64,000 nucleotides of DNA from a virus (IMGVR_UViG_3300045999_007288:1-64000), one strand, 5' to 3'. Shown: positions 16,516 to 33,388, counted from the stretch's first letter. The notes: generated by a model not told the origin, from the letters alone. Translations and numbers: made by a program.

Positions 16516-16942
16516 CGAGTTGTTCTACTATAACTTTACATTTGTTTAAAAATTCAACACCAGATGTATCACGATAAGCTTGCCCAAAATAAACTTTTTT
16601 TATTCCGCTTTGATAAATCAGTTTAGAGCATTCTATGCATGGTGCATGAGTAATAAACATTGTTGCTCCGTCTCCGCTTTCGCTACTTCGTGCTAATTTA
16701 CTGATGGCATTCGATTCGGCGTGGAGCACTTCTGGTTTTGTTTTTAATTCGTAGTCGCCTGTTTTATCCCAAACTTTATCTTCACAGTTGTTATCCCAAC
16801 CTGCAGGCATGCCGTTATAGCCAATGCTGATAATTCTATCATCTTTAACTACAATAGCACCAACATGCAGTCGTCGAGCATGACTGAGTTCAGCAAATAT
16901 TTTTGCAGTCTGCATGTATGCTTGGATTAATTTTTTCTTCAT
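16508..16942 (-). CDS. dCMP deaminase
   Basis: VGAIVV, IISIGYNG.P.G, HAESNAI, THAPCIEC Zn motif; ATG at 16942 is coupled to the upstream gene. Confidence 0.92.
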   Translation of the reverse strand: MKKKLIQAYMQTAKIFAELSHARRLHVGAIVVKDDRIISIGYNGMPAGWDNNCEDKVWDKTGDYELKTKPEVLHAESNAISKLARSSESGDGATMFITHAPCIECSKLIYQSGIKKVYFGQAYRDTSGVEFLNKCKVIVEQLDV

Positions 16943-17634
16943 TTTCTTAACCAAGAAATATTATCCCAAATATCGCCATTGGGATTAAATCTATTAGAAA
17001 CTCTATTATATAAATCGATATCAGGTAACAAATATTCCATTATTTTTTCATTGGGAGAAGAATTAAATTTTTCTTTTATATCTGCTTCGAGTCTCTTTTT
17101 TAAACTAGAGGAAATATTTGACTCCTGATCAGTTGCCCAATAACTATCTATATAAATTTTATATTTTTCTAAGAGTTTTGCAATTGCCCATTTAACCCCG
17201 TCATGATTTTTTACAGGTTCCAGTGGAATCCAATCAATTTGATTACAAAATTCTTCGTAATAGTTATAAACATATCCGTATGAATGTATATCTAAGATAG
17301 GGGTACTCAAAACAAAATTTTGCAATTCAACATTTTTATAATATTCAGTTATTAGATTTTTTTGAAATAACCATTCTGCTATTGCTTTATACCGTCTAGT
17401 CAAAGGATCCGACATCAAAGTAAAAACACGACTGTTGTCCCAATTAATTTCTGAAAACGGTATTTGTCTCCATCGACAGTTTTGATTAAAAGTGGCCGTC
17501 AAAAAACTGGATCCACATTTTAAAGTTGCAATACATGTCAATACCTCGCAGGTATACACTGCTGCTGTAGCCCCAGGCCTTCTTTCAAATTTATTGAATT
17601 CTTCAACTTCTAGAATATAAGGAGTTATGTCCAT
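16939..17634 (-). CDS. sulfotransferase-family-like protein (AT-rich)
   Basis: 5'-PSB-like LKCGSSFL, degenerate 3'-PB SDPLTR, LD.HS, C-terminal YL.PDI.LY. Confidence 0.5.
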   Translation of the reverse strand: MDITPYILEVEEFNKFERRPGATAAVYTCEVLTCIATLKCGSSFLTATFNQNCRWRQIPFSEINWDNSRVFTLMSDPLTRRYKAIAEWLFQKNLITEYYKNVELQNFVLSTPILDIHSYGYVYNYYEEFCNQIDWIPLEPVKNHDGVKWAIAKLLEKYKIYIDSYWATDQESNISSSLKKRLEADIKEKFNSSPNEKIMEYLLPDIDLYNRVSNRFNPNGDIWDNISWLRK

Positions 17635-17643
17635 GATTTACAA

Positions 17644-17675
17644 ATTATAATTAATTGACATCAAATTGTCAATTA
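17644..17675 (-). promoter_or_regulatory. perfect sigma70 promoter overlapped by a 9-bp palindrome
   Basis: Minus strand TTGACA (17672-17667), 17 nt, TATAAT (17649-17644); inverted repeat TAATTGACA-6-TGTCAATTA 17652-17675. Confidence 0.75.
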
Positions 17676-17924: not shown

Positions 17925-18712
17925 TTAAGTCCTAGTTCTTTTCTGATTTTAGTAGCAGAAATATCAGTGATAGATTCATCAAATGTTTCTTCACCAGCAG
18001 AATATCCCACACCACGACCCCATCCAATATGCACTATGTTAGGAACTACTTGTATTTCATATTGTCCTTGATACAATGGGTCTAAATCTCGACGGATAAA
18101 TGATTTCACTTTTTCTACTTCGAAGGGATTGGACCCTTGCCAGCCTTGTACATCACGGACTTGAATTATAACTTGGCCAGTGCGCTGTAGCAGTCTTTCA
18201 AATAATGCCCTGTGACCATCGTGCCAAGGTTGCCAACGCCCTAACATTTGTACCGTTTCTTTTTTCCAATCAAATACAGGCCGTCGACGATTGTCAATAA
18301 TGTGTTCAGCGATAAAATCTGCCCACTTAGCGGCATTCTGTTCATTAATTCGAAAATCATAAACTTCGGGCTCTACAAACATTTTATTAGTATCAGCGTA
18401 ACGACCTTCGCGTATAGTATCCACCCATACAGTCCAATCTGCTTTAAAATTGTTACGCATTTCTACTAATGGTGCAACAAAATCACATAGTGCATAATCT
18501 GTATGACATGACATCGACAAATCAAACATACGTTTACTTTGGCGAATTCTGCCAGCTTCGCTGAAATCCCAATCGTCAAATTGTTTTCTTACTTCGTCTG
18601 CGTTAAACCAAGTAACTGTTTTGCCATTGTCTTCCAATAACTTTTTTAATTCTGTTGCTAAGTAGGTTTTTCCTGCTCCAGGCAAGCCCATAATTAAAAT
18701 TCGTTGTGTCAT
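17921..18712 (-). CDS. adenylylsulfate-kinase-like P-loop domain fused to an HxGH nucleotidyltransferase domain
   Basis: GLPGAGKT, NADEVR, DFS..GR.RQ; C-terminal GRWQPWHDGH and ISATKIR. Confidence 0.8.
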   Translation of the reverse strand: MTQRILIMGLPGAGKTYLATELKKLLEDNGKTVTWFNADEVRKQFDDWDFSEAGRIRQSKRMFDLSMSCHTDYALCDFVAPLVEMRNNFKADWTVWVDTIREGRYADTNKMFVEPEVYDFRINEQNAAKWADFIAEHIIDNRRRPVFDWKKETVQMLGRWQPWHDGHRALFERLLQRTGQVIIQVRDVQGWQGSNPFEVEKVKSFIRRDLDPLYQGQYEIQVVPNIVHIGWGRGVGYSAGEETFDESITDISATKIRKELGLK

Positions 18713-20190
18713 GATAGTACCTTTACTCCATATAATTTTTCAAATCTATCAGCGTCCTTACGATCATTGACCATAGGTTCGCCTCGAATGTTCAGACTAG
18801 TATTTAATAGCATAGGGCAGCCTGTGACAATAAACCATTTCTCTAATAGTTCTCGTATACCTGACCCGTCCTTTGGTACAGTCTGAACACGACTAGTTCC
18901 GTCATGATGCACAATAGCAGGAAATAAGTCAGGATGCCTGCAAAGAGCGACTGATTGCATATACCTACTGCTACTGAAGCCACTGGGCATGCCAAAATAC
19001 TCGTTGGCAAACTCTTCCAAAATAACTGGTGCGAAGGGTCTGAATTTTTGTCTACGTTTAATTTCATTTACTCGATCTTTTATATCTGGTCCCCGGGGAT
19101 CGGCCAACAAGCTACGATTACCTAATGCTCTGGGGCCGAATTCAGCACGGCCACTGGCAATGCCAACAATACGATTAGCAATAAGCTCATCTAACGCAGC
19201 ATTAGTAGGGTAAGGTCCGGGAATATTGTGACCTAAGAAAGCATCGCGCCAATTAATCCTACCACCATAAGCCAGTGCAGCAGCACCCAAACTAGAACCT
19301 GCATCGCCAGGATTGGGCATTATCCATATATTATCAAAATAAGGACCTATTCTGCCGTTGGCCACACAATTAAGAGCAACCCCGCCCATATAAACTAAAT
19401 TTTTGCTCCAGTTAAAGTCTTTTGCTCTACGCATAACATTTAGTACAAGATCTTCTGTTAAGTCTTGTGCGCTGGCTGCAATATCCATATCTCCAACATA
19501 AGACAAATACTTTTCTTCTATGCCAGTATGAAGATTTTCTTTAAATTTAATTTCCCACTCATTATGTAAAAATTTAGACTTAAACAAATCAGTGAACGCA
19601 GGCGCACCATATGCTGCCATACCCATTAAAATGTATTCTTCTTCATTGGGTTTAAGTCCAACACGTTCTGTCATTGCACTGTAAAACAATCCTATACTAT
19701 GCGGATATTTTTGGCGCCATAATCTTTTATAAACGGCTTTTCCTTGAACATATTCTGCTGCCCAAATACTTATTGTGTCCCATTCCCCAATGGCGTCTAT
19801 CACAACCACTGTGGCTTTATTAAATGAGCTTGTTTGAAACCCTGCGGCTGCATGACATAGGTGATGATTATGGGTTGAAATCTTACCTGGAAATTTAGAA
19901 AATTCTTTGCCTATTTGCCTAGTAAGAATCTGTCGGGCAGTAAGTTTATTCCATTCAAGGCCCTGACCACTGTACAGTTGTCTTAACTGTTTATTCCATG
20001 GTCGTTCATAGTAAGCAACATGATCAATCCTATAATCAATTATTTCTTTGATTATACCAGGACTTAAATTTGGATCATTCTTAATTTTACTATAGCGTTC
20101 GCTGTGGCCCGCATATAATATATTTCCATAATTACCAATGACACTTATTGCAGCGTCATGAAATCCTGCAGATATTCCTAAAATATTCAT
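18709..20190 (-). CDS. carbamoyltransferase, NodU/CmcH/TobZ family
   Basis: ILGIS..HDAA, HH..HAA, DAIGE, E...MGMA.YG, GGVALN, GDAG, EFGPRALGNRS, KRRQ.FRPFAP, DGTSRVQTV, LLNTSLN. Confidence 0.93.
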   Translation of the reverse strand: MNILGISAGFHDAAISVIGNYGNILYAGHSERYSKIKNDPNLSPGIIKEIIDYRIDHVAYYERPWNKQLRQLYSGQGLEWNKLTARQILTRQIGKEFSKFPGKISTHNHHLCHAAAGFQTSSFNKATVVVIDAIGEWDTISIWAAEYVQGKAVYKRLWRQKYPHSIGLFYSAMTERVGLKPNEEEYILMGMAAYGAPAFTDLFKSKFLHNEWEIKFKENLHTGIEEKYLSYVGDMDIAASAQDLTEDLVLNVMRRAKDFNWSKNLVYMGGVALNCVANGRIGPYFDNIWIMPNPGDAGSSLGAAALAYGGRINWRDAFLGHNIPGPYPTNAALDELIANRIVGIASGRAEFGPRALGNRSLLADPRGPDIKDRVNEIKRRQKFRPFAPVILEEFANEYFGMPSGFSSSRYMQSVALCRHPDLFPAIVHHDGTSRVQTVPKDGSGIRELLEKWFIVTGCPMLLNTSLNIRGEPMVNDRKDADRFEKLYGVKVLS

Positions 20191-20292: not shown

Positions 20293-21393
20293 TTATTTAT
20301 TGAGCAAACTACTGCTGTAATCGTAACCAGGTTTTAATCTTTCAATTTGTTGATCATAGTAGTCCTTATCTGACCAAGTATAAGAATATACAGAGCTCAA
20401 AATGTTTCCTGACCCATCATCGCATTGAATCGAATATATGTCTAAATAACACGATAGTATCGGCCAAACTTCACTGTATTTGATCGTCCCAAAACTTCTT
20501 TGTAGATCAACTTGACCCACTGAATGGTATCCGAAGTTGTATTGATTGTCTTCGGGGTCGAATCCGTTTCGTTCGAGCCATGATTTAAACCCAGACATTT
20601 CTTTGGTGTACCAAGGATGCGGCCCATTATAACATACATCCTGTGCCCATTCGATGTCAAATTCCCCGCTATAGTAACGTAGATGTGTAATAGCATCACA
20701 GGTAGCCTTGTCAATGTCAATGCCTTTTTCGTCTCGATACACTTCATATAACGTTTTACCGATTTGTGTCCAATGCAGATATACTTCCCCAAATTTTCGA
20801 TCATATCTGGATTCGTCAAAAGTAGTTTTATGTATTGCTGGAAATTCGTATCGTGCGGCGTTCAAAAATGTAGTAATTTGACTAGGTCTGACCCATTCTG
20901 GTAATGTTACTTTTTTACGTTGACTTAACATTAAACTCTCTGCTTCATGACATAAATTATTCAATTGTCTAATAGCAAATTTAGTTGTATAATCTGCCCG
21001 TTTATAATAATCACTGAGTCCCCATACAGTTCCTTGTAAAATCTCAAAATGATTGTGCAATTTGTTCATTAAATCCTGATTAGGATTTAATGTTTTAGGA
21101 TCCCGTAGAGTAAAAGGGTAAAAGTTTTCTTCTATTTTATATTCATCCCGAAAGAAATCATTTATTACATTCTTAACCCAATATAGTTCTTTACAAATAT
21201 ATTCTAAATCTCTTTGACTGTCGGGGAATCCTAAAAAGCAAAAGTTCTTTTCTAGATATTTGTGTTGCTGTACGATTTCTTGTAGTGCTGTAAACCATTG
21301 CTGAGCCATTTCGTGCTCGTAGACATCGATAATATAATCTAATGTTTTTGTTTTATCTAACGGATTGCGTAGTGTTACTATTACTTTATTCAA
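20293..21393 (-). CDS. hypothetical protein in the radical SAM cluster
   Basis: 366-aa ORF coupled to neighbours; NKLHNHFE..., QLNNLCHEAE, HW.QIGKT motifs. Confidence 0.7.
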   Translation of the reverse strand: MNKVIVTLRNPLDKTKTLDYIIDVYEHEMAQQWFTALQEIVQQHKYLEKNFCFLGFPDSQRDLEYICKELYWVKNVINDFFRDEYKIEENFYPFTLRDPKTLNPNQDLMNKLHNHFEILQGTVWGLSDYYKRADYTTKFAIRQLNNLCHEAESLMLSQRKKVTLPEWVRPSQITTFLNAARYEFPAIHKTTFDESRYDRKFGEVYLHWTQIGKTLYEVYRDEKGIDIDKATCDAITHLRYYSGEFDIEWAQDVCYNGPHPWYTKEMSGFKSWLERNGFDPEDNQYNFGYHSVGQVDLQRSFGTIKYSEVWPILSCYLDIYSIQCDDGSGNILSSVYSYTWSDKDYYDQQIERLKPGYDYSSSLLNK

Positions 21394-22675
21394 TTGAATT
21401 CCACCATTTTAATACTTCGGGTCTAGCTGAAAATATATCATGCATAGTATAGCTATCATTTCGAATTTGTTCAAGTTTTTCGATTCTTGCTTTTCCTTTA
21501 CGCAAGCCAAATTGATATCCATCGGGCCACTGTTCTTGAAATGTAGGTCTAGTTTTTAGCTGTACAAGTATATCCTTTAAGGCGCCGCCTACAGTGGGTA
21601 TAATTTCATCTATCCAAGGTTCTAATAGATCCCTGGGCAGTGATAAAGGTGACATAACTATGTCCGGGCTAAAACTAAAAATTACTTTCGCGAGAATATC
21701 GACTTTTTCTTCTTCTGCAAGTCGCTGGATACTAGCAACTTCGAACATGCCGGGCAAAGTGAGCGTAAAGTCAATTCGCATTTGACGTCGGTGACTAGCA
21801 ATTTTAGTTCCTTGACGGAAGTTCTCAAGCCATTCATTGTAGTTAAGGCCTGTTCTAATGTATTCGCCAATCGAGCCCGTGCCGTCGATGCTTGCACAAA
21901 TCTGCCAATCACGAAGCCTGCTGAGAATATCACTATAAAGATTGACACCTTTATAATTAATTCTTGATAAATTTGTATTATATCTAGCATAAACATTTGG
22001 CCCGTCTCCTAATTCTATAATCCTCTGCATGTAGCGCCAATGCTGTTCATACATAAGAGGTTCACCGCCAACCCAATATACTTCCTCTACGCGGTGTTCT
22101 TCGACGGCTTGACTAAACTCTGCCTCAATCTGTGTGTCTTGAAATTGTTCGATTTGTTTTTTGATTTCGGCTTGCATCCAATTATTCTTAGGATCATGCC
22201 AATTAACCATATTGTATTGACGTTGCTCGCTTTCCCATGCACTACTTAACATGTCTCCACACATGCGACATTTAAAATTACAAAGATTACTAAATCTGTA
22301 ATCCCAACTTACAGGCTTCATATCTGTCGAGCCGTCGGGCCGAGTCTTTTCCATCGCCTCATTGTACTTATTCCCAAACAAACTATTAAAATAACTACGG
22401 TAAACAGATGTGTTCAACAACTTATCATTACATACTTCACACTCGGGCAAAGTTTCTCCTGCTATCATACGGCGACGAACAGACTTCATATGTTCGCTGT
22501 TCCAATGTTCGTCCAACGTAACAGGTATATATTCTCCTGTGCCGTTAGTTGTGTCGATGTACTGTTTAAAATTCTGTGCGGGTTCGCGACTAGCGCAGCA
22601 TAATCTGCGTTCGGTCTGCGGACTTAAATATGTATGTGTCCAAGGGGCCATGCACAAAGTATCAGGTTTAATCAT
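21386..22675 (-). CDS. radical SAM enzyme with N-terminal twitch/SPASM domain (subtype A)
   Basis: CMAPW...LCC...CEVC; CNFKCRMC; GGEP; YNTNL. Confidence 0.9.
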   Translation of the reverse strand: MIKPDTLCMAPWTHTYLSPQTERRLCCASREPAQNFKQYIDTTNGTGEYIPVTLDEHWNSEHMKSVRRRMIAGETLPECEVCNDKLLNTSVYRSYFNSLFGNKYNEAMEKTRPDGSTDMKPVSWDYRFSNLCNFKCRMCGDMLSSAWESEQRQYNMVNWHDPKNNWMQAEIKKQIEQFQDTQIEAEFSQAVEEHRVEEVYWVGGEPLMYEQHWRYMQRIIELGDGPNVYARYNTNLSRINYKGVNLYSDILSRLRDWQICASIDGTGSIGEYIRTGLNYNEWLENFRQGTKIASHRRQMRIDFTLTLPGMFEVASIQRLAEEEKVDILAKVIFSFSPDIVMSPLSLPRDLLEPWIDEIIPTVGGALKDILVQLKTRPTFQEQWPDGYQFGLRKGKARIEKLEQIRNDSYTMHDIFSARPEVLKWWNSIE

Positions 22676-23873
22676 ATCCCATAGCCTTGGCTATTTCAGA
22701 GTGTGTATCCATAAAGTTCTGTTTTCTATATGTATCTGTGCGCTTCATATTGTTTATGAATACTTGCCCGTCACTGCCTGGGCCATTTTCGATAAATTTA
22801 ATTACATTCTCAATTTCTTGATGATGTTCTTTTGTATTCCAAAAAGTTGTTTTGAGTTTATTTAAAACTAATTCTCTGGCTGCGGGTGTTAATCGTTGAA
22901 TACTCATATGATCAGGGCTGTGTAACATATTAAAATAAATGCTGTCAAAAGGTTTGGTGCTTGCCCAAGCCAGTAACTCATCTAAGTAATATACATTTTG
23001 AATATTAATAGTGAAACAAAGTTGAGTAGTAATGTTAGGCGTGTCAACATCTCGTGCAAAATGAACTCCGTCGATTATTTCGTTGGCTTTATCCCAGTCT
23101 GCACCGTATCTTTCATATTCAAATCTCGCGCCAACATTGTCGATACTAAATGCAATATCTACACGACCGAAATGATTCCATAAATCTGATTTTTGTATGC
23201 CTAACCCGTTAATAGTTGCATTGGTATTATAATGAATATCAATATGTTTACTATGACCTGTAGCTACTGCATATCGCAGTAATTCCCAATGTTCTTCGAT
23301 TAACCAAGGTTCACCCCCAGTAAATTCAAAATACTTAATATTGGGCAGTAATGATTTTAAATTCTCCCAAAAATCAGGACTCTCTTCTGGCCACTTACCT
23401 TGTTTAAGCCAGGTATATGCAACATGTTTTTTCTTATCATGTCCTTGCGGCAAGTACTCTAATTCTTCTGCTGCCCACTTGCTACTGCTCCAGCTTCCAC
23501 ATATCCTGCACTTTAAATTACAAATGTTGCCTAGCTTTAAATCAATGAACCACAATTGATCAGGTACATCGTTTTGCCAATCAACCAATGGGTATAACTC
23601 CTTGAGTCTGACTTGGCTGTGAATACGTTTACTAGTCCTATTTGCTGCTTCCTCATCCCAGCATAATTTACAGGTATTTGGTTTTTCGCCGCGGCGGAAT
23701 TGTCTGCGTAAGTTTTGCATATACTCGCTGGTGTATGCATCTTGCAATGTATGTCTTCTAAGATCAATACCAGTAATATCTTCCCTTGCAAGACAACAAG
23801 GTCTTGCAGTACCCATGGGACTAGTCTCAATACTAATCCATGGCAGCATACAAATACTATTAGGTAGTGTCAT
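22668..23873 (-). CDS. radical SAM enzyme with N-terminal twitch/SPASM domain (subtype A)
   Basis: CMLPW...PCC...CKLC; CNLKCRIC; GGEP; YNTNA. Confidence 0.9.
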   Translation of the reverse strand: MTLPNSICMLPWISIETSPMGTARPCCLAREDITGIDLRRHTLQDAYTSEYMQNLRRQFRRGEKPNTCKLCWDEEAANRTSKRIHSQVRLKELYPLVDWQNDVPDQLWFIDLKLGNICNLKCRICGSWSSSKWAAEELEYLPQGHDKKKHVAYTWLKQGKWPEESPDFWENLKSLLPNIKYFEFTGGEPWLIEEHWELLRYAVATGHSKHIDIHYNTNATINGLGIQKSDLWNHFGRVDIAFSIDNVGARFEYERYGADWDKANEIIDGVHFARDVDTPNITTQLCFTINIQNVYYLDELLAWASTKPFDSIYFNMLHSPDHMSIQRLTPAARELVLNKLKTTFWNTKEHHQEIENVIKFIENGPGSDGQVFINNMKRTDTYRKQNFMDTHSEIAKAMGYD

Positions 23874-25207
23874 TTATTTTTTAACTCGCTTAATTCAGAA
23901 AATGTATTCCAAAAGTTTTCTCCCCTGAGATTATCAATTAAATTAATTTCTTGTTTAAATTTATCCCAGTGCTGTGAGCCGTTGGTGGCCATTAGAAAAT
24001 TAATAGCACTCTTAAATCCAGTTGTTGCACGTTTTAATGGGTCTTGTGGTTCTAACCATTCAATATGACGCTCGTATGCTGGTTTAATTACTTGCTCTTT
24101 AAATTCTTGAGAGAATATGTCAACTCTATACCATTCGGGACTTTGGCAAATATTAACGTTAAAGTCCTTGGGTTTAATAAATCCTAAATCAACCCACTCC
24201 TTATGAAAATCCAATACGTGAAGAACGTTCATTGCACTAATAGTAGATGCTATATAAAAATCTACGTGCGGCACTTCTTCTAACATGCGTTCACGATTAC
24301 GAACTGTTTGTTTCCAGTCTGTGCCTTTTCTCATTAATTCTGCTCTAGTCCCGCTGGCATCCAGACTAGCACCTACACCCACTGTTCTAAAGTGTTTCCA
24401 GTATTCAAATACGTGTTTGTCTTTGAATGCTAATTCGCTAAAGTTTGTATTGTACTGGATACATACGTCTGTTCGACCGGCTTCAATGAGTTTTTCTAAT
24501 AGATAATAGTGTTCCTTCATAATCAAAGGTTCGCCGCCTGCAAAATAGACTTGTTCCAAGTAGGGAATATGTTCTTCCATTTGTGCAATCATATAATCTT
24601 CGTCACCGGCAGCATATTCAATTCTGGCCAAATCTTTGCCGTTTACGTCAGGCACTCTATTGAATAATTTGACATGATCATTATACCAGTTACTGCTAAA
24701 AACAGGGCCGCACGTTCTGCAACGAAAATTACACAGATTACTAAATCTAACGTCCCAATATCTAATCTTAAATTCTGGATGAGTTCCATCTGGCAATGTT
24801 TTATCTACGTCTGCAATGTTATGTCCGTAACTACGATTAGCGTCATAGCGCATACTAAAGAATCCGTTTTCTTCTTGTTCATAACATTTGGTGCATTGTT
24901 TGACTGGCTGATCTGCCATCATTAAACGTCTGATCTCTTTATATCCTTCTTGATTCCAAACTTCTTGCATTGAATTCTTTTTTAAATTCCCAATTGGATG
25001 AAAATATTCTGCAAAACAACAAGGATACACACGACCATCCGGGTACGCATGTTGATGAACCCAGGGCAACATACAAAATGACTTACTATTAGTTAATCTA
25101 CTGATCTGTGTTTCTGTAAGGGAGTTTGAATCTATAAACAGTGGCTTTCGACTATTGTAGTCATAGCCACGTTTATAAAATCTATCAGTTTTTTTGTCTT
25201 CGCTCAT
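23870..25207 (-). CDS. radical SAM enzyme with N-terminal twitch/SPASM domain (subtype A)
   Basis: CMLPW..DGRVYPCC...CTKC; CNFRCRTC; GGEP; YNTNF. Confidence 0.92.
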   Translation of the reverse strand: MSEDKKTDRFYKRGYDYNSRKPLFIDSNSLTETQISRLTNSKSFCMLPWVHQHAYPDGRVYPCCFAEYFHPIGNLKKNSMQEVWNQEGYKEIRRLMMADQPVKQCTKCYEQEENGFFSMRYDANRSYGHNIADVDKTLPDGTHPEFKIRYWDVRFSNLCNFRCRTCGPVFSSNWYNDHVKLFNRVPDVNGKDLARIEYAAGDEDYMIAQMEEHIPYLEQVYFAGGEPLIMKEHYYLLEKLIEAGRTDVCIQYNTNFSELAFKDKHVFEYWKHFRTVGVGASLDASGTRAELMRKGTDWKQTVRNRERMLEEVPHVDFYIASTISAMNVLHVLDFHKEWVDLGFIKPKDFNVNICQSPEWYRVDIFSQEFKEQVIKPAYERHIEWLEPQDPLKRATTGFKSAINFLMATNGSQHWDKFKQEINLIDNLRGENFWNTFSELSELKNK

Positions 25208-26553
25208 AGTGTATTATACCAATCTGCTAATGCAGGAAATGTTTTGCAGAAGTCTTTTCCTCTGCGTTGATCGTATTGTGTGTAAAATTGTTTAAAATCG
25301 TTTTGTAATTTTGGCAATTCAAAAGAATCGCTGTGGGGTGTCTTAACAACATCCAAATAATCTATTAGACGCAGTACATGATTTATTTCGTGCTCGTGTA
25401 AGTAGTTATGCCCTTTATGGCGAACAACAAAATCAATTAGCCGATTACGATATTTTGTTTTAATGTCGTCTGGCAATATCAATGGACTTTGAAAACTAGG
25501 GAAACGTAAAATGTTTAATGTAAAATTAGGAAAGTCTCTTCCAAAGTCTTTCTTTAAATTAACCATTGTATCTAAGAAATCGGGTAATGTGTCTAAACAC
25601 AATGCATTGATCGTACACATCACATGCAATCTATAAAACTTTTTACTTTGTGTAAGTTTTATAACATGTTCTAACCATAGATTATAATTCAGTCCATCGC
25701 GAATATATTCTGCTTGATCATATTCGCTTTCGTTGCTAGTATATAAATCTATTTCAAGTCCATCTACACTGTCAATTAGTCTATCTATATCAACTTGATA
25801 TCCTAAATTACTGTTGATAGCAAGTCGAGTTTTACTACGGCCTTTATTTGCTTTAAACCAATCTAATAATTTCCAAGTTTCTGCACTCATCAGAGGTTCT
25901 CCACCAGTAATGCGTAATTCGTCTAATGTTTTATGGAGATCGCTTTCCCACCATTTATGGAATGCTTCAACGTATGGATTAGATTCGCCAAATTTATAAA
26001 GTTGTGAACTATCATGGGTGTGCGTAAAGTGATTTCTACCATCACTAACAAGATTATTATAGGGCCCGTTACGTTTAATATCGTTGACCCATGTACTACT
26101 AAAAGCAGGATTACAATAACTACAAGCAAACTGACAAGTTCTATCAAACGCGATTTCAAGAGTTTTAAGATCGAAATCTTCTCGAGCTGGTGTTCTATAT
26201 GCGCGGGCCAAGTCTTCATCATTGTAAATCACAGTTTTGTATACACGATCACTTACTGCATCTCGGCCCATGTCTTCAATCTTCCAGCAATACTCACAAC
26301 CAGATGGACGCTCACCTTTTTGCATTTGTTCGCGTTCCATCTTTTTCTTTTGAGTATTGTGTAATGCCTTAGGATTGTTGATCACATCATCTATTTCGAC
26401 TTTATGAGGCAATGGATGATGACAGCTAGTGGTCATACCGCTGCCTAACCATATAGTAGCATTATACCACTTAGCTCCGCAAAAAGATTTTGATTTAATA
26501 TCGATTACTCTACGTTTGTAATCTAAGTCTGTTTCATTGTTTAGTCTTGGCAT
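25204..26553 (-). CDS. radical SAM enzyme with N-terminal twitch-like domain (subtype B)
   Basis: CGAKW...SCHHP...CEYCW; CQFACSYC; TGGEP. Confidence 0.9.
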   Translation of the reverse strand: MPRLNNETDLDYKRRVIDIKSKSFCGAKWYNATIWLGSGMTTSCHHPLPHKVEIDDVINNPKALHNTQKKKMEREQMQKGERPSGCEYCWKIEDMGRDAVSDRVYKTVIYNDEDLARAYRTPAREDFDLKTLEIAFDRTCQFACSYCNPAFSSTWVNDIKRNGPYNNLVSDGRNHFTHTHDSSQLYKFGESNPYVEAFHKWWESDLHKTLDELRITGGEPLMSAETWKLLDWFKANKGRSKTRLAINSNLGYQVDIDRLIDSVDGLEIDLYTSNESEYDQAEYIRDGLNYNLWLEHVIKLTQSKKFYRLHVMCTINALCLDTLPDFLDTMVNLKKDFGRDFPNFTLNILRFPSFQSPLILPDDIKTKYRNRLIDFVVRHKGHNYLHEHEINHVLRLIDYLDVVKTPHSDSFELPKLQNDFKQFYTQYDQRRGKDFCKTFPALADWYNTL

Positions 26554-27574
26554 AGTTGTTAAATTTAGTTATAAAATCATTTATTAGTTGTTTATCCTCG
26601 CCGGGTGGTTGCGTGGATATCATTACATTCCTATTGTGTCTACAAATATCTTCGGCTTCATTTAAAAATTCTTCTAAATTAGAATTGCAAAGAAATTCTA
26701 TCACATCTACTATTCGATTTAATCGTTTATCGTTGTCGTCTATTAGATCAAACGATTCGTCTATTAGATGACCAAACGTTTTAAATCCTTGATTATGTAA
26801 ATCTTTATAGAATCCATAGTTTGCCGCTACTACAAATGGGTGTCCAATTTTAAGTGGCTTGTAAATTTTTTCTGTTCTGAAGCTATAGGGCAAATAAAAA
26901 TTTGTTTCTGTTACAACACTGAAATAAGAATCTTCAAAAATATTTGCAAATATTTGCCCGTCAGGCCAGTCGTTTAATTTATATTTTCCGTTTACTACAT
27001 TATCACTGTTGACTTGAAATTGGTAGTCTTTGGGCAAAAATTTATTGTCGTAGAGTGCAGACCATAAACTTCGTTCTAACAAATCTTTTTTATTTAATTT
27101 TTCTATCAGTAATGAACGATGAGATCTTTCTATCCCATTTAAAAAATTAAACAAAAAAGTTTTATTCCTTTTTAAAAAAATTTGATCAATTATCTTCGAA
27201 TCTCTTTGTTCGAGCTCAGTTGTTGTACGTCCTAAGATATACCTAAATATGTCTACTGTTATATGTGCTATATTCGAGGGCAAATCTCCCGACGACACGA
27301 TAAACGGTAGACGCACAAAATCATTCCATCCTAATGCGTTTAATGTATCTAATACTGTATTGGTACCTTCGTGTAGCATACTTAGTATAAACAAATTTTT
27401 GCTGTCCACAGAAATAATATTTTTTTTAATAATATTTCCTGTTAATAAAACAATACCATTGTCTGAAATTAAACTTTCTACTGTATCGTGCTCCACTACA
27501 TCAAAATAATCAGGATACCAATTAAAAAATTCTAAATTGTCGTTTTTTAACGAGTTAATTTTAATCTTTTGCAT
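26534..27574 (-). CDS. AT-rich hypothetical protein, possibly GT-B/GT10-like
   Basis: F.FLNG..R.HR and FSVVTET...RTEKIYKP...HPF...GFKTF...IDESFD, reminiscent of the E..TEK motif of GT10 enzymes. Confidence 0.45.
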   Translation of the reverse strand: MQKIKINSLKNDNLEFFNWYPDYFDVVEHDTVESLISDNGIVLLTGNIIKKNIISVDSKNLFILSMLHEGTNTVLDTLNALGWNDFVRLPFIVSSGDLPSNIAHITVDIFRYILGRTTTELEQRDSKIIDQIFLKRNKTFLFNFLNGIERSHRSLLIEKLNKKDLLERSLWSALYDNKFLPKDYQFQVNSDNVVNGKYKLNDWPDGQIFANIFEDSYFSVVTETNFYLPYSFRTEKIYKPLKIGHPFVVAANYGFYKDLHNQGFKTFGHLIDESFDLIDDNDKRLNRIVDVIEFLCNSNLEEFLNEAEDICRHNRNVMISTQPPGEDKQLINDFITKFNNYAKTKQ

Positions 27575-28706
27575 TTAAAAGATCCTTAACTTTGACAGGA
27601 AGAGTTATATTTTTTCTATCTTCCCATTGTTTTAAAAAATGTAAAAATTCTGAAAATAAAGTTTTATTAAATTTAGTTGAAGACAATATACTTAACACAA
27701 CATCAACATTCTTTATATTTTTATTATCTAACAACGTTAATAGCACAGTCTCTGCTTGTTTTTTAATGTTATCCGGAGTTGCTTCAATGCTTTGAATTCT
27801 GGGATGTTGACCATATGACAGTGCCCAATGAAAGTTATCTTTATATTTTTCTATTCTGGGCAGTATTACACCAGATGAAAAGTTTTCGATATCACAGAGA
27901 GTTAAATTAGTCATCAAACTCAATATATTAATTTTGATATTTTCTTCACTACGTTCTAATAGATAGTCCAAATTTTTCAAAAATAAATCATAATCAAGTC
28001 CATACCTAACAAATTCTGATATTTCCTTGCAAGAATCTAAACTGACATTTATTACAATGTATTTAAATTTATTTCTATTAGATAGTAGTTTATCAATTGA
28101 TGTTTTATCGACCATTAAATTTGAAGTTACATCTAAAATTCCTTTATGGTCTATTGTATCTAAGATATTAAAAAAATTTTTATTTATTAATGGCTCGCCA
28201 CCTATTATTCTCAAAGTTTCAAATTTTAGAGTGTTTAACAATTTTAAATTTTCGACCACTAATTGTTTATTTTTAATATCAACACTGTAGATATGTCGAT
28301 CTGTAAACAATTGATATTTTTGATTTTGTACGTCCTTTTCCCATTGACTGCTAAACTTTGGATTACAATATATGCATTGCATATTGCAAGCATTGCCAAC
28401 ATTAATTTCAATTACCTTAGGCGATTTATTATTTTTATATTCATCGAATGTTGATACTTCAAATTTTTCTAAAAACTGAGTTCTGAGGCTGGTGCCGTTT
28501 GTTTTTTCAGAATTCCAACAGTAAGAACAACTGGAATCTTGCACATTGTTTAATAAATTTTGTTTTTGATGATCGATAATTTTGTTGTAATCGTCGACAA
28601 ATTTTTCCGGTCTTGCTTTACAACAACCATACACATAATTATAACTAGTATTAATGACTAATTCGTCCCATTTAGCCGGACAAAAAGTGTTAGGTAGTTG
28701 TTGCAT
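27561..28706 (-). CDS. radical SAM enzyme (subtype B-like, AT-rich, divergent)
   Basis: CPAKW...GCC...CSYCW; CNMQCIYC; GGEP; TSNL. Confidence 0.88.
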   Translation of the reverse strand: MQQLPNTFCPAKWDELVINTSYNYVYGCCKARPEKFVDDYNKIIDHQKQNLLNNVQDSSCSYCWNSEKTNGTSLRTQFLEKFEVSTFDEYKNNKSPKVIEINVGNACNMQCIYCNPKFSSQWEKDVQNQKYQLFTDRHIYSVDIKNKQLVVENLKLLNTLKFETLRIIGGEPLINKNFFNILDTIDHKGILDVTSNLMVDKTSIDKLLSNRNKFKYIVINVSLDSCKEISEFVRYGLDYDLFLKNLDYLLERSEENIKINILSLMTNLTLCDIENFSSGVILPRIEKYKDNFHWALSYGQHPRIQSIEATPDNIKKQAETVLLTLLDNKNIKNVDVVLSILSSTKFNKTLFSEFLHFLKQWEDRKNITLPVKVKDLLNAKD

Positions 28707-30087
28707 AATATTTGCATTCCTTCCAAAAATCTACCATTTCTGGAAATGCCAAAATAAAGTTAGTGCCGCGGCGGCGATCATGTTCATTGAAAAATTTATA
28801 AAAATTTGCTTTTTGCATTTTAACATAATCAGGATCTAATTTGCTACCTTCTCTCATCCAATCAATGACTCTTTGTAAACGTTGAACTTCATAATCTTTG
28901 AAACCGTGAAACGGAGTCTCAGGTTGCTCCATTTTTGTAATCATAAAACTCCATGACATTTCTAAGTTATCTATATAACTTTCTGGTAATAGTTGTAAGC
29001 TTTGCCATTCTGGTTTACGAAGAATCGGAGTATCAAACCACACACGCTGATACGTTTTACTGTGTATTTGTCTGAGTCCTAATATACAACCTAGTAAATT
29101 TTGAAGGCCGGCCACATTTAAATTATTCATAGTAATTATAAATGTTAAACTACTACGATTGGGCACTTCATATAAAAATCTGTTGACGTTATCCCAAAAT
29201 CTTTCAAAATTTAATCCATGTCTGATATATTCGGCCTGTAGAAAAGTGGCATCTATACTAACATACTGCATGAAATGCTCAATTTTTTTATCTTCATTGC
29301 TGCACAATCGTTTCACATAATCTAAGTATTTTTCAAACAATGCAGGGTCAACGCTGAAATTAGAAGTCACATTTAAATGTAGTTTTGGATTAGGATTTTC
29401 CAATACATAATCAAATACACGATATGTATTCTTATCCATGAGAGGCTCTCCGCCAGTCATTCTGAAATGTTCCAATTCTGGATATAGCGTAGGCCACCAA
29501 GACCAGAACGCATCAACATAAGGATTATCTTCCCTTGCAGGAATAACTTTTCTTTCTCCAGTAAAATGACTGGGGTCGTTGTGCAGTGGGCTTGTGGGAA
29601 AAGCGCCATTACGTTCTACTTCACTGGCCCAACTACTAGAGTATTGGGGGCTGCAATAACTGCAAGATAAGTTGCAAGCATTATTGAAATTGACTTCTAC
29701 GTAGGAAGGAAGCACATCCTCGTCTCCAGTGGAATTAACTATTTTTTCAAAATCTTTTGTTGCCCACGGCTCTCCACTACGATAATGTCGATCGCTTAAA
29801 TTGCCCAAATCTTCTTGTGTCCAACAATAACTACATTCTTGTGGGCGCTCATTATGCAGCATAATCTTACGCTGTTCTTTTTTGTAAGGAGTGTTATGCA
29901 ATGCACCAGGATTATCTTTTAATAGTGTTGAATCTATTTTATGTAAAGGTGGGTGATAGCAACTGTTATTAAGTCCCGTCGGTAAATGTAAGCTAACTTG
30001 TTTCCATTTGGCCAAACAAAGTGCAGGACCTAATTTAGATTTTGCGTCTTCCGCAGAATTTAAAAATACGCTTTTAGACATTACCAA
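28690..30087 (-). CDS. radical SAM enzyme with N-terminal twitch-like domain (subtype B)
   Basis: CLAKW...SCYHP...CSYCW; CNLSCSYC; TGGEP; TSNF. The ATG at 30081 may be the true start. Confidence 0.9.
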   Translation of the reverse strand: MVMSKSVFLNSAEDAKSKLGPALCLAKWKQVSLHLPTGLNNSCYHPPLHKIDSTLLKDNPGALHNTPYKKEQRKIMLHNERPQECSYCWTQEDLGNLSDRHYRSGEPWATKDFEKIVNSTGDEDVLPSYVEVNFNNACNLSCSYCSPQYSSSWASEVERNGAFPTSPLHNDPSHFTGERKVIPAREDNPYVDAFWSWWPTLYPELEHFRMTGGEPLMDKNTYRVFDYVLENPNPKLHLNVTSNFSVDPALFEKYLDYVKRLCSNEDKKIEHFMQYVSIDATFLQAEYIRHGLNFERFWDNVNRFLYEVPNRSSLTFIITMNNLNVAGLQNLLGCILGLRQIHSKTYQRVWFDTPILRKPEWQSLQLLPESYIDNLEMSWSFMITKMEQPETPFHGFKDYEVQRLQRVIDWMREGSKLDPDYVKMQKANFYKFFNEHDRRRGTNFILAFPEMVDFWKECKYYATTT

Positions 30088-31007
30088 CCCTCAACTCGTC
30101 GAATAACATCTAGTTCAGTCATTGTTGTTCCCATGTTACGATGCACTGCTTTATAATGATGTTTAAAAAATGCACTCTGGTCTGGATTCATATCTACTAT
30201 CGGCAATCCCAATCGTGTACGCAATGTTTGTCCAATGTTTTCACAGGCAGGTTCTTCGTCTTTGCTAAAGCTGTTCCAAAGATATGCGAGATGGTCAAAA
30301 TCTTGCACTTGTTTATAATCCCAGTCCCTTAACATAGTCATGTACGTACCTAGCCGAGCACCGTATATAGCCCACCAACCATTTTCTACATCTTGCCCTA
30401 CGCTCTGCCAGATGCATAAATGATCGTAATTACGGGCATGAACTTTTTGTTCAAACTCTTGTAAGCTAGGTTTCTTACCACGATTCAAACACATTTTAAC
30501 GCCTTCACGAAAGCCTGCTCGCCAAGCTTGAAAAGGTGTTGCATTGGGAAAGGTAGTACTATAGCAATCATGCATGGGAATATACTTTGGATCAAAGCAA
30601 AACTCTACCACAGTCTCATCTCTGCCATCAGTGGCTTCGTGTGTTCGCATATTGTTGACGAACTCTTTGGTCCAGCAACTTATTCCGCCATTGCCGTACA
30701 TCAATCCATTGATATGATTACGAGCTTTCCACCTAAATACACAGTCGTGATTGTTATCATCAAATTTAAGTTGAAGATTAAAAAATTCAGCATCTGGTAT
30801 ATTGTCCCCATCTATTAGCACGAACCTATCAGTGTCACTGGCCGCAGCAGCGGCTTTGTGTGCAGCATCACTGCCTTTAATACCGTCCACATGTTTAGCC
30901 CACGGAATTAAATTTTGAATCTTAATCCAAAATTCTTCTTTTTTCGGTTCGTCGTAGGTTAAAAATATGCAATCGAGGTCAGCAATATCAACGATTTTTG
31001 TAGTCAT
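30081..31007 (-). CDS. GT-A fold glycosyltransferase-like protein
   Basis: IFLTYDEP, G.KGSDAAH.AAA, DXD motif (IDGDN), WRAGFREGVKM. Confidence 0.65.
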   Translation of the reverse strand: MTTKIVDIADLDCIFLTYDEPKKEEFWIKIQNLIPWAKHVDGIKGSDAAHKAAAAASDTDRFVLIDGDNIPDAEFFNLQLKFDDNNHDCVFRWKARNHINGLMYGNGGISCWTKEFVNNMRTHEATDGRDETVVEFCFDPKYIPMHDCYSTTFPNATPFQAWRAGFREGVKMCLNRGKKPSLQEFEQKVHARNYDHLCIWQSVGQDVENGWWAIYGARLGTYMTMLRDWDYKQVQDFDHLAYLWNSFSKDEEPACENIGQTLRTRLGLPIVDMNPDQSAFFKHHYKAVHRNMGTTMTELDVIRRVEGW

Positions 31008-31413
31008 AGTGTTCTACATCTTTATAAGTTTCACCATCTTCCAAAATTATGCCTGGAACATTTTTTACTGTTTTAAATCCTGTCTGACTTTTTTCAAGTT
31101 GCGGTGTTTGCGCGGCATTGTCTTTTTTAACTGCAATTTTATTATTATATACCGTATACTTGTGTAATTCTGCATATACACTCTTATAAGTATCCTCATC
31201 TACTATGATATAATCGCCGGTGAGGCCATACATTTCAGCATCTTTTACTGTAGGCGATGTTGCTATAATATTGCCAGACGCATCATAATAAATTCGATAT
31301 TCGTATTCAATTATCGAAGGTTTATCTATTAGACCCAACTCGTCTAATTGTCTAATTATTTCTTCAAGAGTGGTGTCTTCATTAACTGTTATGGTAGGTT
31401 CGTTCGTATTCAT
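30988..31413 (-). CDS. hypothetical protein
   Basis: 141-aa ORF overlapping both neighbours; EYRIYYD..G.I. Confidence 0.65.
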   Translation of the reverse strand: MNTNEPTITVNEDTTLEEIIRQLDELGLIDKPSIIEYEYRIYYDASGNIIATSPTVKDAEMYGLTGDYIIVDEDTYKSVYAELHKYTVYNNKIAVKKDNAAQTPQLEKSQTGFKTVKNVPGIILEDGETYKDVEHYDYKNR

Positions 31414-32230
31414 GTATTAATTCCTCTGTTACATATGATTTATCATAATAATGCACTGGGCTGTATTGATTCAGATTATGAATTTTAATCATATGGTTAT
31501 CTCTATCATGCAGCACTATGTCTTGCCAAGACTGATCTGTATTGCCCCAGCCGTTGATACCAGGTTTCAAATGTACGAAATTAATGAAATCCATGGTTGG
31601 TATGGTACACAATTCAACCCCTATAGTTTTTGCTGTTAAAGCATACAGTACATCAGTGCTAGGCGTGTCTTCTCGACAATTTTTTAGAACATTATCTCTA
31701 AAATATTCCCAATTTCTTAAAATTCGTTGGGCTGTTAAAAAGAAATCATTGGCTACTTTGCTATATCTAAAATACATTAAACCATTGTAAATGTCTGGTA
31801 ACTCGTTGTCATCAAAAAATTTTCTATAAAGTCTAGTTGTAGCTAGTTCTTGCCTATATGTTTTGCATCCTGTACTTAATACAACGTCCCGCAGTCTAAA
31901 CGCATTCCACCAATGATCGATATTTCTGGTGAATAACAAATCGCTTTCTAATTTAATAGTTTCTTTAAAAGGACTCAGTGAAAAAACTTGGTATTCATTG
32001 GATAGTTTCCATGTACTGTCTTTATCATTTTCGTCATAGGGTATTTCGATTATATGATTAAATACTTTTTTATGTTTATCTGTGATTTGCTCGATGGTAT
32101 TTTTATCGCAAATCACTGCATACTTGGCAGTTGGATGCAGGCTTTTTACATTCATTGCTTGGCAATACGCAAGGGATAGATAATCCACCTTATCTGTATT
32201 TTGTGCAAATGTTAGAAACCCTTTAGTCAT
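31382..32230 (-). CDS. GT-A (GT8/mannosyltransferase-like) glycosyltransferase paralogue
   Basis: KGFL.FA.N, LSPF.ETI.LESD, F..HLKP, HYYDK. Confidence 0.55.
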   Translation of the reverse strand: MTKGFLTFAQNTDKVDYLSLAYCQAMNVKSLHPTAKYAVICDKNTIEQITDKHKKVFNHIIEIPYDENDKDSTWKLSNEYQVFSLSPFKETIKLESDLLFTRNIDHWWNAFRLRDVVLSTGCKTYRQELATTRLYRKFFDDNELPDIYNGLMYFRYSKVANDFFLTAQRILRNWEYFRDNVLKNCREDTPSTDVLYALTAKTIGVELCTIPTMDFINFVHLKPGINGWGNTDQSWQDIVLHDRDNHMIKIHNLNQYSPVHYYDKSYVTEELIHEYERTYHNS

Positions 32231-33062
32231 TGCAGATCCTTTCTACAAAATTTTTGAATTGATCCGACAGTAGATAATTCTTATCCATGATATGTAAATT
32301 TTGTCTGCTTATCACATCTGCTCGGCTATCATACTTGACCGTTAAAAATTTATTTTTAAGATCAATTGCCTCGATGTTATCTTCTATAGTTAACATTGGC
32401 CATGGTATACTTTGTTCGGGAGTAAGGGTGTGCCCATTTAAAATAATATTGGCCATACTAAATGCAAAATCATTTCTATAGTTTGTTTCTCTAATAGAAA
32501 ATAAACTTCTATAATACCCATAGTTTCTTTGTATGCGTCCTACTAAATCAAAAAATAATTTGGCTCTTAGAGTTTTTCGAAATAACACAACTGTGGCCCA
32601 CACCATAGGCAAACTTGCAGGTCCCATTTCATCTATGTTAAGTGCTTGAGGAGTCTGCATGTTATACATTAACCTATAATCAAAAGGTTGATCTAACAAT
32701 TTTAACAAGCTAGTGTCCAGCATCAAATAATCTGTGTCTATTAGAATAGTTTCATCATAGGGGCTGAAGTCGAATGCTCGATATCTGTCAAAATTTTTCC
32801 ATTCGTATACTTGTTGATCCTTAGAAAATCTAACATTGCCAGTTTTACTGTCAACACGAATTACTTGATCATAATCAAATTTTAATTCAGCATCTACGTC
32901 AGTGACCAGAGTCACAGGAAGTCCCAATGTACGATTGATCAATCTGCTGGTTTGGTCTGCTATTTCGGTATACTTAACTTTTTGACTATTAAAAGCAAAT
33001 ACCAGTACACCTTTAGATTTTTCTAATTCGCTTGAGCTCTTCATGTTGTTGATGCCATTCAT
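32223..33062 (-). CDS. GT-A (GT8/mannosyltransferase-like) glycosyltransferase paralogue
   Basis: KGVLVFAFN, SPYDETILIDTD (DXD), WATV..F.K, RNDFA, H.M.K. Confidence 0.6.
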   Translation of the reverse strand: MNGINNMKSSSELEKSKGVLVFAFNSQKVKYTEIADQTSRLINRTLGLPVTLVTDVDAELKFDYDQVIRVDSKTGNVRFSKDQQVYEWKNFDRYRAFDFSPYDETILIDTDYLMLDTSLLKLLDQPFDYRLMYNMQTPQALNIDEMGPASLPMVWATVVLFRKTLRAKLFFDLVGRIQRNYGYYRSLFSIRETNYRNDFAFSMANIILNGHTLTPEQSIPWPMLTIEDNIEAIDLKNKFLTVKYDSRADVISRQNLHIMDKNYLLSDQFKNFVERICND

Positions 33063-33339
33063 TCATTACACTTTGATAATGTTGTCGAGCCTTTGTTAAA
33101 AACGATTGTTTATCTAATTTAATCGGATTCAAATAGATATCTTCTATGTACAAGATATCATCGGGCCACGTTGCTACAAATGCCAATAATTCCGGATTTA
33201 TTTTGAACAATCCGTTTTCATAGGGCATATGCAATTCTGTTAAAATACGCTCGCGCAAGACTCTTTTATTGATTTGATAATCTGTAGCCAGTTTTACCTG
33301 ATTGACTATTTCTTCGACAGTGCTGTTCATATTGGGCAT
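33013..33339 (-). CDS. hypothetical protein, first gene of the GT/rSAM operon
   Basis: 108-aa ORF directly after a promoter-like element. Confidence 0.65.
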   Translation of the reverse strand: MPNMNSTVEEIVNQVKLATDYQINKRVLRERILTELHMPYENGLFKINPELLAFVATWPDDILYIEDIYLNPIKLDKQSFLTKARQHYQSVMNEWHQQHEELKRIRKI

Positions 33340-33345
33340 AAAATA

Positions 33346-33388
33346 ATAGGTATATACTATTATAATATATACCTATCTCAGATGTCAA
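33346..33388 (-). promoter_or_regulatory. sigma70-like promoter overlapping an 11-bp hairpin (possible terminator of the tail transcript)
   Basis: Minus strand TTGACA (33388-33383), 18 nt, TATAAT (33364-33359); inverted repeat ATAGGTATATA 33346-33356 / TATATACCTAT 33366-33376, followed by TATTTT on the minus strand. Confidence 0.6.

Follow-up and report, generated by a model that had tools for sequence, protein, structure and literature searches.

The DNA analysed here is a 64,000-nucleotide (nt) stretch of a viral genome (IMGVR_UViG_3300045999_007288:1-64000; hereafter the window). At 21386-30087 its minus strand carries the array under study, which comprises six open reading frames (ORFs) for radical S-adenosylmethionine (SAM) proteins, named R1 to R6 in the order of transcription, and one ORF for a protein that is not a radical SAM enzyme, X346 (Table 1). 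The window belongs to a 74-kb IMG/VR virus record whose completeness is about 21% by CheckV estimate. It also encodes T4-type baseplate wedge and hub proteins, an ORF of 4673 amino acids (aa), an SbcD-like nuclease and a thymidylate synthase together with DHFR. The source is an uncultured lake-water T4-like jumbo phage.

All six radical SAM proteins are members of NCBIfam family NF033640 (N_Twi_rSAM, "twitch domain-containing radical SAM protein"). Taking the curated cut-off of 170 bits as the criterion of membership, we found that each protein exceeds it and aligns end to end, from model positions 1-3 to 384-398, and that none of 14 control genomes contains a match over the cut-off. The models of named radical SAM families gave at best 35 bits for viperin_w_prok (cut-off 180), 39 for MoaA (284) and 26 for QueE (260). 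Pairwise identity among R1-R6 is only 19-31%. The family is catalogued but has no characterised member; a literature search for N_Twi_rSAM or NF033640 returned nothing, a search of PDB sequences with R4 found no radical SAM match, and megablast of the array against cultured phage records found no match.

An initial annotation of the window had proposed a tandem array of six N-terminal-twitch radical SAM paralogues at this position. The six genes and their twitch assignment hold, but their contiguity does not, since X346, which went unmentioned, interrupts the series between R2 and R3. The arrangement is not an artefact of assembly, as independent contigs from other lake-water runs span the R6-R3, R3-X346-R2 and X346-R2-R1 junctions with 0-1 differences. 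At least 20 lake-water metagenome runs (2020-2025) carry the stretch almost word for word. A possible deletion variant, seen as a single low-depth contig joint that skips 25821-29492, was rejected; the shorter side of the joint has only 20 matching bases and probably reflects cross-alignment between paralogues.

An auxiliary cysteine module ahead of the radical SAM core

Alignment of the six proteins revealed an invariant series consisting of C24, W28, C43, C85 and C88, followed by C138, C142 and C145 of the CxxxCxxC core and by the SAM-binding motif G212-G213-E214 (R1 numbering), which extends to GGEP in all six. All seven cysteines are 98-100% conserved within each orthologue clade (100% in the R1 and R3 clades), as are the CxxxCxxC and GGE motifs. 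The GGE motif, N255, S281 and R293 show no variation among 143 family members, and R93 and R120 almost none. The four N-terminal cysteines follow the pattern C-x13/14-G-x4-C ... CxxC and are enough for a fully ligated auxiliary cluster. We take this pattern to be the same as that of the auxiliary cysteines in the BtrN structure, C...(G-x4-)C...CxxC.

The Pfam SPASM model matches R4 over its full length (residues 45-109; 52.9 bits, E = 4e-14) and R5 at residues 8-72 (25.4 bits); R6, at 20.1 bits, falls just under the cut-off of 21.5, and the model was not detected in R1-R3. In all six proteins the SPASM-homologous segment with its four cysteines precedes the CxxxCxxC core, and the C-terminal 80 residues are Cys-poor helices. 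The canonical SPASM/twitch arrangement, with the auxiliary domain placed after the radical SAM barrel, is therefore not that of R1-R6, and the reversed order that the initial annotation had described is borne out. From this homology, each protein should hold one SAM-cleaving [4Fe-4S] cluster at CxxxCxxC and a second cluster in an N-terminally permuted half-SPASM (twitch) domain.

The individual motifs had also been read correctly. R4, R5 and R6 share CM(L/A)PW and a CC pair, with the cores CNFRCRTC, CNLKCRIC and CNFKCRMC, respectively. R1, R2 and R3 instead have C(L/P/G)AKW, and R1 and R3 further contain SCYHP and SCHHP; the extended form NSCYHPP is found in all 72 members of the R1 clade, and TSCHHP in 69 of the 72 in the R3 clade. 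The Tyr or His of R1 and R3 takes the place of the extra second cysteine of the CC pair, and the cysteine of G-x4-C is retained. The suggestion that this His replaces a Cys ligand is not supported, because both proteins keep four fully conserved N-terminal cysteines, leaving no need for a His ligand.

An AlphaFold2 model of R4 built on the 143 family members (predicted local distance difference test score, pLDDT = 95.5; predicted template modelling score = 0.92) comprises a hairpin-plus-helices domain at the N-terminus, then a partial TIM barrel and, at the C-terminus, a helical domain. The closest solved folds were BlsE (Z = 13.1), CteB (12.6), SkfB (12.3) and anSME (12.2), followed by SuiB (11.5), viperin (11.4), MoaA (11.2), DesII (11.1), EpeE (10.6) and AprD4 (7.8). 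With Foldseek TM-scores of 0.3-0.4 against the nearest structures, the model places R4 among only generic relatives from the twitch/SPASM branch. BtrN did not appear in the structure lists for R4.

A fixed set of five paralogues and a variable slot

A pattern search of viral contigs yielded more than 583 relatives; locus counts given below refer to the best 80 loci, all of which have an R1 orthologue (54-94% identity). A tree of the 359 radical SAM ORFs from these loci resolved six clades with one window protein in each: R1 (75 sequences from 74 loci), R3 (72 from 69), R4 (76 from 67), R5 (61 from 58), R6 (55 from 54; support 100) and R2 (4 from 3). R1, R3, R4, R5 and R6 accordingly make up a fixed set, each having a one-to-one orthologue in 54-74 related phage contigs. 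R2, which had been counted as an equal member, lies outside this conserved five as a rare, low-GC accessory copy, with relatives in only three loci (82% identity in L013, 39% in L058 and 31% in L074). Its GC content of 27.6% and that of X346 (30.1%) are the lowest of the operon, the neighbours of R2 having 35-41%. Relatives of X346 (about 35% identity) occur in 38-40 of the 80 loci, none of them a locus with the window-type R4, and X346 itself had no match in Pfam, NCBIfam, PHROG or PDB sequences. R2 and X346 look like recent additions in a variable slot.

Against their closest orthologues, all six genes have ratios of nonsynonymous to synonymous substitution (dN/dS) of 0.03-0.12, values that are rough because dS is high: 0.03-0.07 for R1, 0.03-0.05 for R3, 0.05-0.07 for R5, 0.09-0.12 for R6 and 0.10 for R2 against L013. 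These estimates point to strong purifying selection on R1-R6, and the relaxed selection that the initial annotation had asked about is seen in none of them.

In the family-wide tree, R1, R2 and R3 fall into one clade (Shimodaira-Hasegawa-like support 98), R6 sits apart on a long branch, and R4 and R5 are placed elsewhere. Two subtypes had been proposed, grouped in transcription order. The order is indeed three CxAKW proteins followed by three CxxPW proteins, and the CxAKW trio is a real clade; the CxxPW trio is unsupported as one, its CxxPW...CC motifs being the consensus of the whole family in the 143-member profile. As judged from the tree and the profile, the real division is between a mainstream form and a derived CxAKW clade.

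Sequence identities of R4 and R5 co-vary across loci (rho = 0.77), and those of both co-vary with the identities of two further operon genes, u279 and u282 (rho with u282 = 0.54-0.60); R1 does not co-vary. Hence part of the cassette changes as a block on a constant background.

The family extends well into bacteria. A scan of one genome per species returned 372 relatives, mostly in Bdellovibrionota, Bacteroidota, Elusimicrobia, Acidobacteria and Polyangiaceae, and 41 of the 78 loci fetched contain two to eight family copies. One Bacteriovoracaceae contig, genuinely bacterial since Obg and ribosomal protein L21 adjoin its array, has eight copies, among them basal members of the R3, R4, R5 and R6 clades. 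The paralogue types therefore predate these phages, and neither their duplication nor their divergence took place in this phage. Of the proposed duplication and stepwise specialisation, what survives is the specialisation, seen as non-redundant copies with orthologue clades of their own and low dN/dS. On present sequence evidence, the paralogue set travels as a cassette. Separately, five contigs (L081-L085) filed as Legionellales, Haliscomenobacter, Polynucleobacter and Porticoccaceae metagenome-assembled genomes carry phage-type R1-R6 orthologues in phage gene order and may be mis-binned phage DNA or prophage-like insertions.

A profile of the 143 members searched against 1.84 billion representatives matched 9,762 clusters (50% identity) at E <= 1e-30. 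Many family proteins carry two or three N_Twi modules, and Pfam architectures include N_Twi-TPR-N_Twi (one of 1106 aa), N_Twi-TPR and Sel1-N_Twi; metagenomic proteins P0121, P0126, P0142, P0147, P0165, P0174 and P0177 are such module or repeat fusions. TPR and Sel1 repeats are protein-binding modules and point to a protein partner or substrate. By analogy, the fusions support physical cooperation between paralogues, which lends indirect support to the heteromeric complex envisaged earlier.

Three complete relatives (G001-G003, reached through L006, L025 and L052; 337-364 kb with terminal repeats) contain 7, 9 and 16 family members over the cut-off, spread over the genome. As only a fifth of the present phage is in hand, it probably has more than six copies as well. 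Each of the three complete genomes has two A-type iron-sulfur (Fe-S) carrier genes (PF01521) and no Fer2 or flavodoxin match. The 74-kb fragment yielded no gene for Fe-S assembly, ferredoxin or flavodoxin, which says little given a record about 21% complete. The objection that six multi-cluster enzymes would be a large cost for a lytic phage is thereby softened: this phage group appears to accept the investment and to supply part of it itself. Among cultured phages, Vibrio phage K566 (L159, 161548-165950) has three radical SAM genes interleaved with hypothetical genes, and both K566 and Ralstonia phage RsoM2USA (L160) encode distant family members with 22-23% identity.

Operon partners beside the tail-fibre genes

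In nearly all 80 loci the gene order is tail-fibre-like gene, u311, 108-aa ORF, u279, u282, (u141), u308, R1, variable slot, R3, R4, R5, R6, u366 and carbamoyltransferase. Twelve consecutive genes in the window, from u279 to u366, overlap their neighbours by 4-32 nt, an arrangement from which the operon is predicted to be translationally coupled. None of the operon proteins has a predicted transmembrane segment.

Table 1. Cassette genes, flanking fibre genes and candidate promoter in the window (coordinates count from its first letter; locus counts are out of the best 80 loci).
Feature	Coordinates	Strand	Length (aa)	NF033640 (bits)	Description
Carbamoyltransferase, NodU/CmcH-type	18709-20190	-			distal cassette end; Pfam Carbam_trans_N E = 1e-39, Carbam_trans_C E = 2e-46
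u366	20293-21393	-			follows R6; 52 loci, median 39% identity
R6	21386-22675	-	429	302	N_Twi_rSAM, own long-branch clade; core set
R5	22668-23873	-	401	333	mainstream N_Twi_rSAM; core set, variable allele
R4	23870-25207	-	445	399	mainstream N_Twi_rSAM; CMLPW, PCC, CNFRCRTC; core set, variable allele
R3	25204-26553	-	449	290	N_Twi_rSAM, CxAKW / TSCHHP type; core set
X346	26534-27574	-	346		not a radical SAM protein, without family match; variable slot between R2 and R3
R2	27561-28706	-	381	195	accessory N_Twi_rSAM; CPAKW, GCC; variable slot
R1	28690-30087	-	465	318	N_Twi_rSAM, CxAKW / NSCYHPP type; conserved core of five
u308	30081-31007	-			just upstream of R1; predicted GT-A-fold N-terminal domain, D66-G-D68 motif; 75/80 loci, median 64% identity
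u141	30988-31413	-			small accessory ORF; 14/80 loci
u282	31382-32230	-			soluble, without recognised family, DxD-like motif; paralogue of u279
u279	32223-33062	-			soluble, without recognised family, DxD-like motif; paralogue of u282
108-aa ORF	33013-33339	-	108		between u311 and u279; tblastn matches in 74/80 loci
Candidate operon promoter	33359-33388	-			sigma-70-type consensus TTGACA-18 nt-TATAAT, 12/12 positions; just upstream of the 108-aa ORF
u311	33400-34335	-			Gly/Ser/Thr/Ala-rich fibre-like protein, directly upstream of the operon
Tail-fibre-like gene	34348-36000	-			PHROG tail-fibre and related matches; immediately upstream of the operon region

Just upstream of R1, u308 is a strictly retained partner gene, conserved to the same degree as R1, R3 and R6. 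The top Foldseek matches of its AlphaFold2 model (pLDDT = 84.9) are all glycosyltransferases, namely PBCV-1 A64R (the best), RmlT, SunS, WrtF and TarP (E = 4e-4, probability 1.0). VIA-align gave Z = 8.9-7 over residues 5-155, with D66-G-D68 invariant, and Z = 7-7.7 for nucleotidyltransferases of the same fold. No sequence family matched u308, its profile had no PDB match, and the Atlas returned only a weak "GT2-like" cluster name. Comparison of u279 with u282 by hhalign gave a probability of 100% (E = 2e-50), and comparison of u279 with u308 showed no relation. The family formed by u279 and u282 went unrecognised by Pfam across about 56 orthologues. Pfam searches of 115 pooled orthologues of u279, u282, X346, u366 and u311 produced a single weak Nucleotid_trans match that is not attributable to any one of the five. 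We consider u279 and u282 candidate, still unproven, sugar transferases. At the distal end, u366 had no match in Pfam, PDB sequences or the Atlas. The carbamoyltransferase is syntenic in relatives wherever the flank reaches, and carbamoyltransferases adjoin bacterial N_Twi arrays in eight loci.

The 108-aa ORF, which occupies an apparent 337-nt gap between u311 and u279, is probably the first gene of the operon. Of 67 related loci, only 4 retain the exact promoter consensus upstream of it. Another perfect sigma-70 consensus, TTGACA-17-TATAAT, is found at 17644-17672 (minus strand) in a 286-nt gap upstream of a 231-aa ORF at 16939-17634. The T4 late-promoter word TATAAATA has only two copies in the window, fewer than expected by chance, and none inside the array.

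Upstream of the operon stand two fibre genes. The nearer one, u311, is by its composition a plausible candidate acceptor for O-glycosylation; runs such as TTGTTTSSTKSTT occur in its sequence. Farther upstream, at 36837-50858 on the minus strand, the 4673-aa ORF is probably a VrlC-like giant baseplate protein of the kind found in pelagi- and cyanomyophages. Pelagimyophages are reported to carry radical SAM cassettes and glycosyltransferases in a host recognition cluster beside VrlC and the tail fibres; it is located, as the present operon is, between VrlC and the neck genes (PMC7029224). That report only notes the presence of radical SAM cassettes, without family, set structure or function (PMC7029224).

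Sugar-related genes recur around the family. The window also encodes a 4,6-dehydratase-like short-chain dehydrogenase/reductase and a PseC/DegT-type aminotransferase. The commonest neighbours of the bacterial arrays are NAD-dependent sugar epimerase/dehydratases, carbamoyltransferases, PhyH and WelO5-like oxygenases and B12 radical SAM enzymes, and a nucleoside triphosphate (NTP) transferase adjoins the Bacteriovoracaceae array.

Candidate substrates of the radical SAM set

Taking together family membership, conservation, synteny, selection and fold, we infer a substrate, a set of reactions and an acceptor for this system. In our preferred interpretation, to which we assign a probability of roughly 0.55, R1-R6 are active, non-redundant NF033640 members that tailor sugars or glycans by radical chemistry. 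Non-redundancy is argued from the six separate clades, five of them with one copy per locus, from the low dN/dS and from a gene order fixed in 80 loci. A sugar pathway is suggested by u308 with its predicted GT-A fold, the carbamoyltransferase, the sugar epimerase/dehydratase neighbours of the bacterial arrays and the dehydrogenase/reductase and aminotransferase of the window. The nearest solved folds of R4, in the twitch/SPASM branch, include the sugar/nucleotide enzymes BlsE, viperin, MoaA and DesII. Each radical SAM protein would target its own position or residue, in a nucleotide sugar or an already transferred glycan, and abstract a hydrogen atom there. It would then complete a distinct step (oxidation, epimerisation, dehydration/deoxygenation or decarboxylation), as in other twitch enzymes, with the fully ligated auxiliary cluster serving as an electron relay. 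The transferases would attach the sugars and the carbamoyltransferase would cap the product. As all the operon enzymes are soluble, a cytoplasmic acceptor is most likely; we favour a virion fibre protein, with host surface sugars as the principal alternative.

Several known systems resemble parts of this scheme. R1-R6 share with NF033640 the N-terminal four-Cys module, the CxxxCxxC core, the GGEP motif and the C-terminal helical region, but the NF033640 entry gives no function and lacks the fixed five-paralogue sets, the variable slot, the linkage to a GT-A-fold protein and a carbamoyltransferase, and the 7-16 copies per complete phage genome. The twitch sugar enzymes, with BtrN as prototype and BlsE, DesII and AprD4 as further members, have in common with R1-R6 a partial TIM-barrel radical SAM core and a sugar-tailoring gene context. 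In contrast to R1-R6, they place the twitch domain after the core; identity to them is only 13-18%, their family models are nowhere near cut-off, and the characterised enzymes act singly, whereas the N_Twi family occurs in sets of five to eight. Chlorovirus PBCV-1, with A64R and its capsid glycans, likewise encodes soluble transferases, and the pelagi-/cyanomyophage host recognition cluster likewise sets such a cassette beside a giant baseplate protein and tail fibres (PMC7029224). None of the described virus glycosylation systems is known to use radical SAM enzymes.

A number of points weigh against sugar tailoring. No reaction is known for any family member, and it is the gene neighbourhood only that speaks for a sugar substrate. 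Of the partner proteins, only u308 has evidence of a transferase fold, its Z of about 9 is moderate, and the fold is common to nucleotidyltransferases; u279, u282, X346 and u366 have no detectable family. The TPR and Sel1 fusions fit a protein substrate equally well as a glycoprotein. The proximity to tail fibres may reflect nothing other than a hypervariable island of T4-like genomes.

The peptide maturases CteB, SkfB, anSME and SuiB are as close to the R4 fold by Z as the sugar enzymes, and EpeE is also among its neighbours. R1-R6 could accordingly be direct protein or peptide maturases that act on a phage structural protein (u311 or the tail fibre) or on a small peptide, introducing epimerisations, thioether or C-C cross-links or Cα oxidations in the manner of anSME, SkfB, CteB, EpeE and PoyD. 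The protein-binding repeats fused to family members and the two fibre genes that directly precede the operon in about 80 loci would suit such a role, and the PhyH, WelO5-like oxygenase and B12 radical SAM neighbours of the bacterial arrays also occur in proteusin-type clusters for RiPPs (peptides that are ribosomally synthesised and then modified after translation). We nevertheless judge it unlikely. The SPASM/twitch maturases have a homologous auxiliary domain, but the order is reversed in R1-R6, there is one auxiliary site rather than two, and neither a leader-binding domain nor a precursor gene was found. Searches with Pfam and NCBIfam at E <= 0.01 detected no RiPP recognition element or PqqD-like family in R1-R6, although distant recognition elements can escape hidden Markov models, and the array contains no conserved peptide resembling a precursor. 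A sugar pathway, moreover, is the simpler explanation for the GT-A-fold partner, the carbamoyltransferase and the neighbouring sugar-nucleotide enzymes.

If sugars are the substrate, the target need not be the virion. Editing of lipopolysaccharide O-chain or capsule sugars at the cytoplasmic face during infection could block superinfection or change receptor display, which is the role proposed for the glycosyltransferases of the pelagimyophage host recognition cluster (PMC7029224). The nearby sugar-nucleotide enzymes are compatible with such remodelling of the host surface, and the perfect sigma-70-type promoter would fit early expression by the host RNA polymerase; the exact consensus is, however, kept in few relatives, as described above. 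The operon also lacks a membrane protein, flippase, polymerase or priming transferase, and the cassette is conserved across phages of probably different hosts and is present in Bdellovibrionota and Bacteroidota genomes. We therefore regard a host-surface target as rather improbable, while noting that the sugar chemistry would be the same as that proposed above, with only the target differing.

The gene palette as a whole (twitch radical SAM enzymes, carbamoyltransferase, PhyH, B12 radical SAM enzyme, aminotransferase, kinase) resembles that of aminoglycoside and nucleoside antibiotic tailoring, and the top structural neighbour of R4, BlsE, is an enzyme of nucleoside antibiotic biosynthesis. 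Downstream, the same strand encodes a dCMP deaminase and a kinase. The product might on these grounds be a soluble aminoglycoside-, aminocyclitol- or nucleoside-like molecule, or a hypermodified DNA base, which we consider very unlikely. The deaminase and the kinase lie outside the conserved cassette, no scaffold-forming enzyme (cyclase or synthase) was recognised, and a free metabolite would leave the constant linkage to fibre genes unexplained. DNA hypermodification was rejected as the principal explanation, since ThyA scores above the cut-off of the true thymidylate synthase equivalog and adjoins DHFR, as in T4, with no sign of hydroxymethyl-pyrimidine DNA.

Returning to sugar tailoring with a fibre protein as acceptor, a more specific and decidedly tentative form of it is radical glycan editing on the phage fibre by a swappable cassette. 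Ordinary sugars would be attached first; five or more radical SAM proteins, possibly as a complex, would then epimerise, oxidise, deoxygenate or branch them in place, each at a C-H position of its own. No organism is known to edit a polymer by radical chemistry with a dedicated set of several paralogues; if true, such editing would give the host-recognition apparatus of jumbo phages a combinatorial sugar code.

Besides Bdellovibrionota, Bacteroidota and Elusimicrobia, the large family NF033640 is present in abundant freshwater and marine jumbo phages. New here, and otherwise undescribed, are the fixed five-paralogue set, the variable slot and the partner genes. They indicate that the family operates as fixed groups of paralogues, deeply divergent and under strong constraint, which are linked beside tail fibres to a GT-A-fold protein and a carbamoyltransferase. 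Phages that invest in 7-16 of these enzymes, each predicted to contain two clusters, also carry A-type Fe-S carrier genes of their own. With defined gene sets, a defined candidate acceptor and cultured carriers (Vibrio phages K566 and K567 and Ralstonia phage RsoM2USA), the function is directly testable. If the proteins do tailor sugars, they would represent a new radical carbohydrate chemistry and add a new layer to the biology of phage host recognition.

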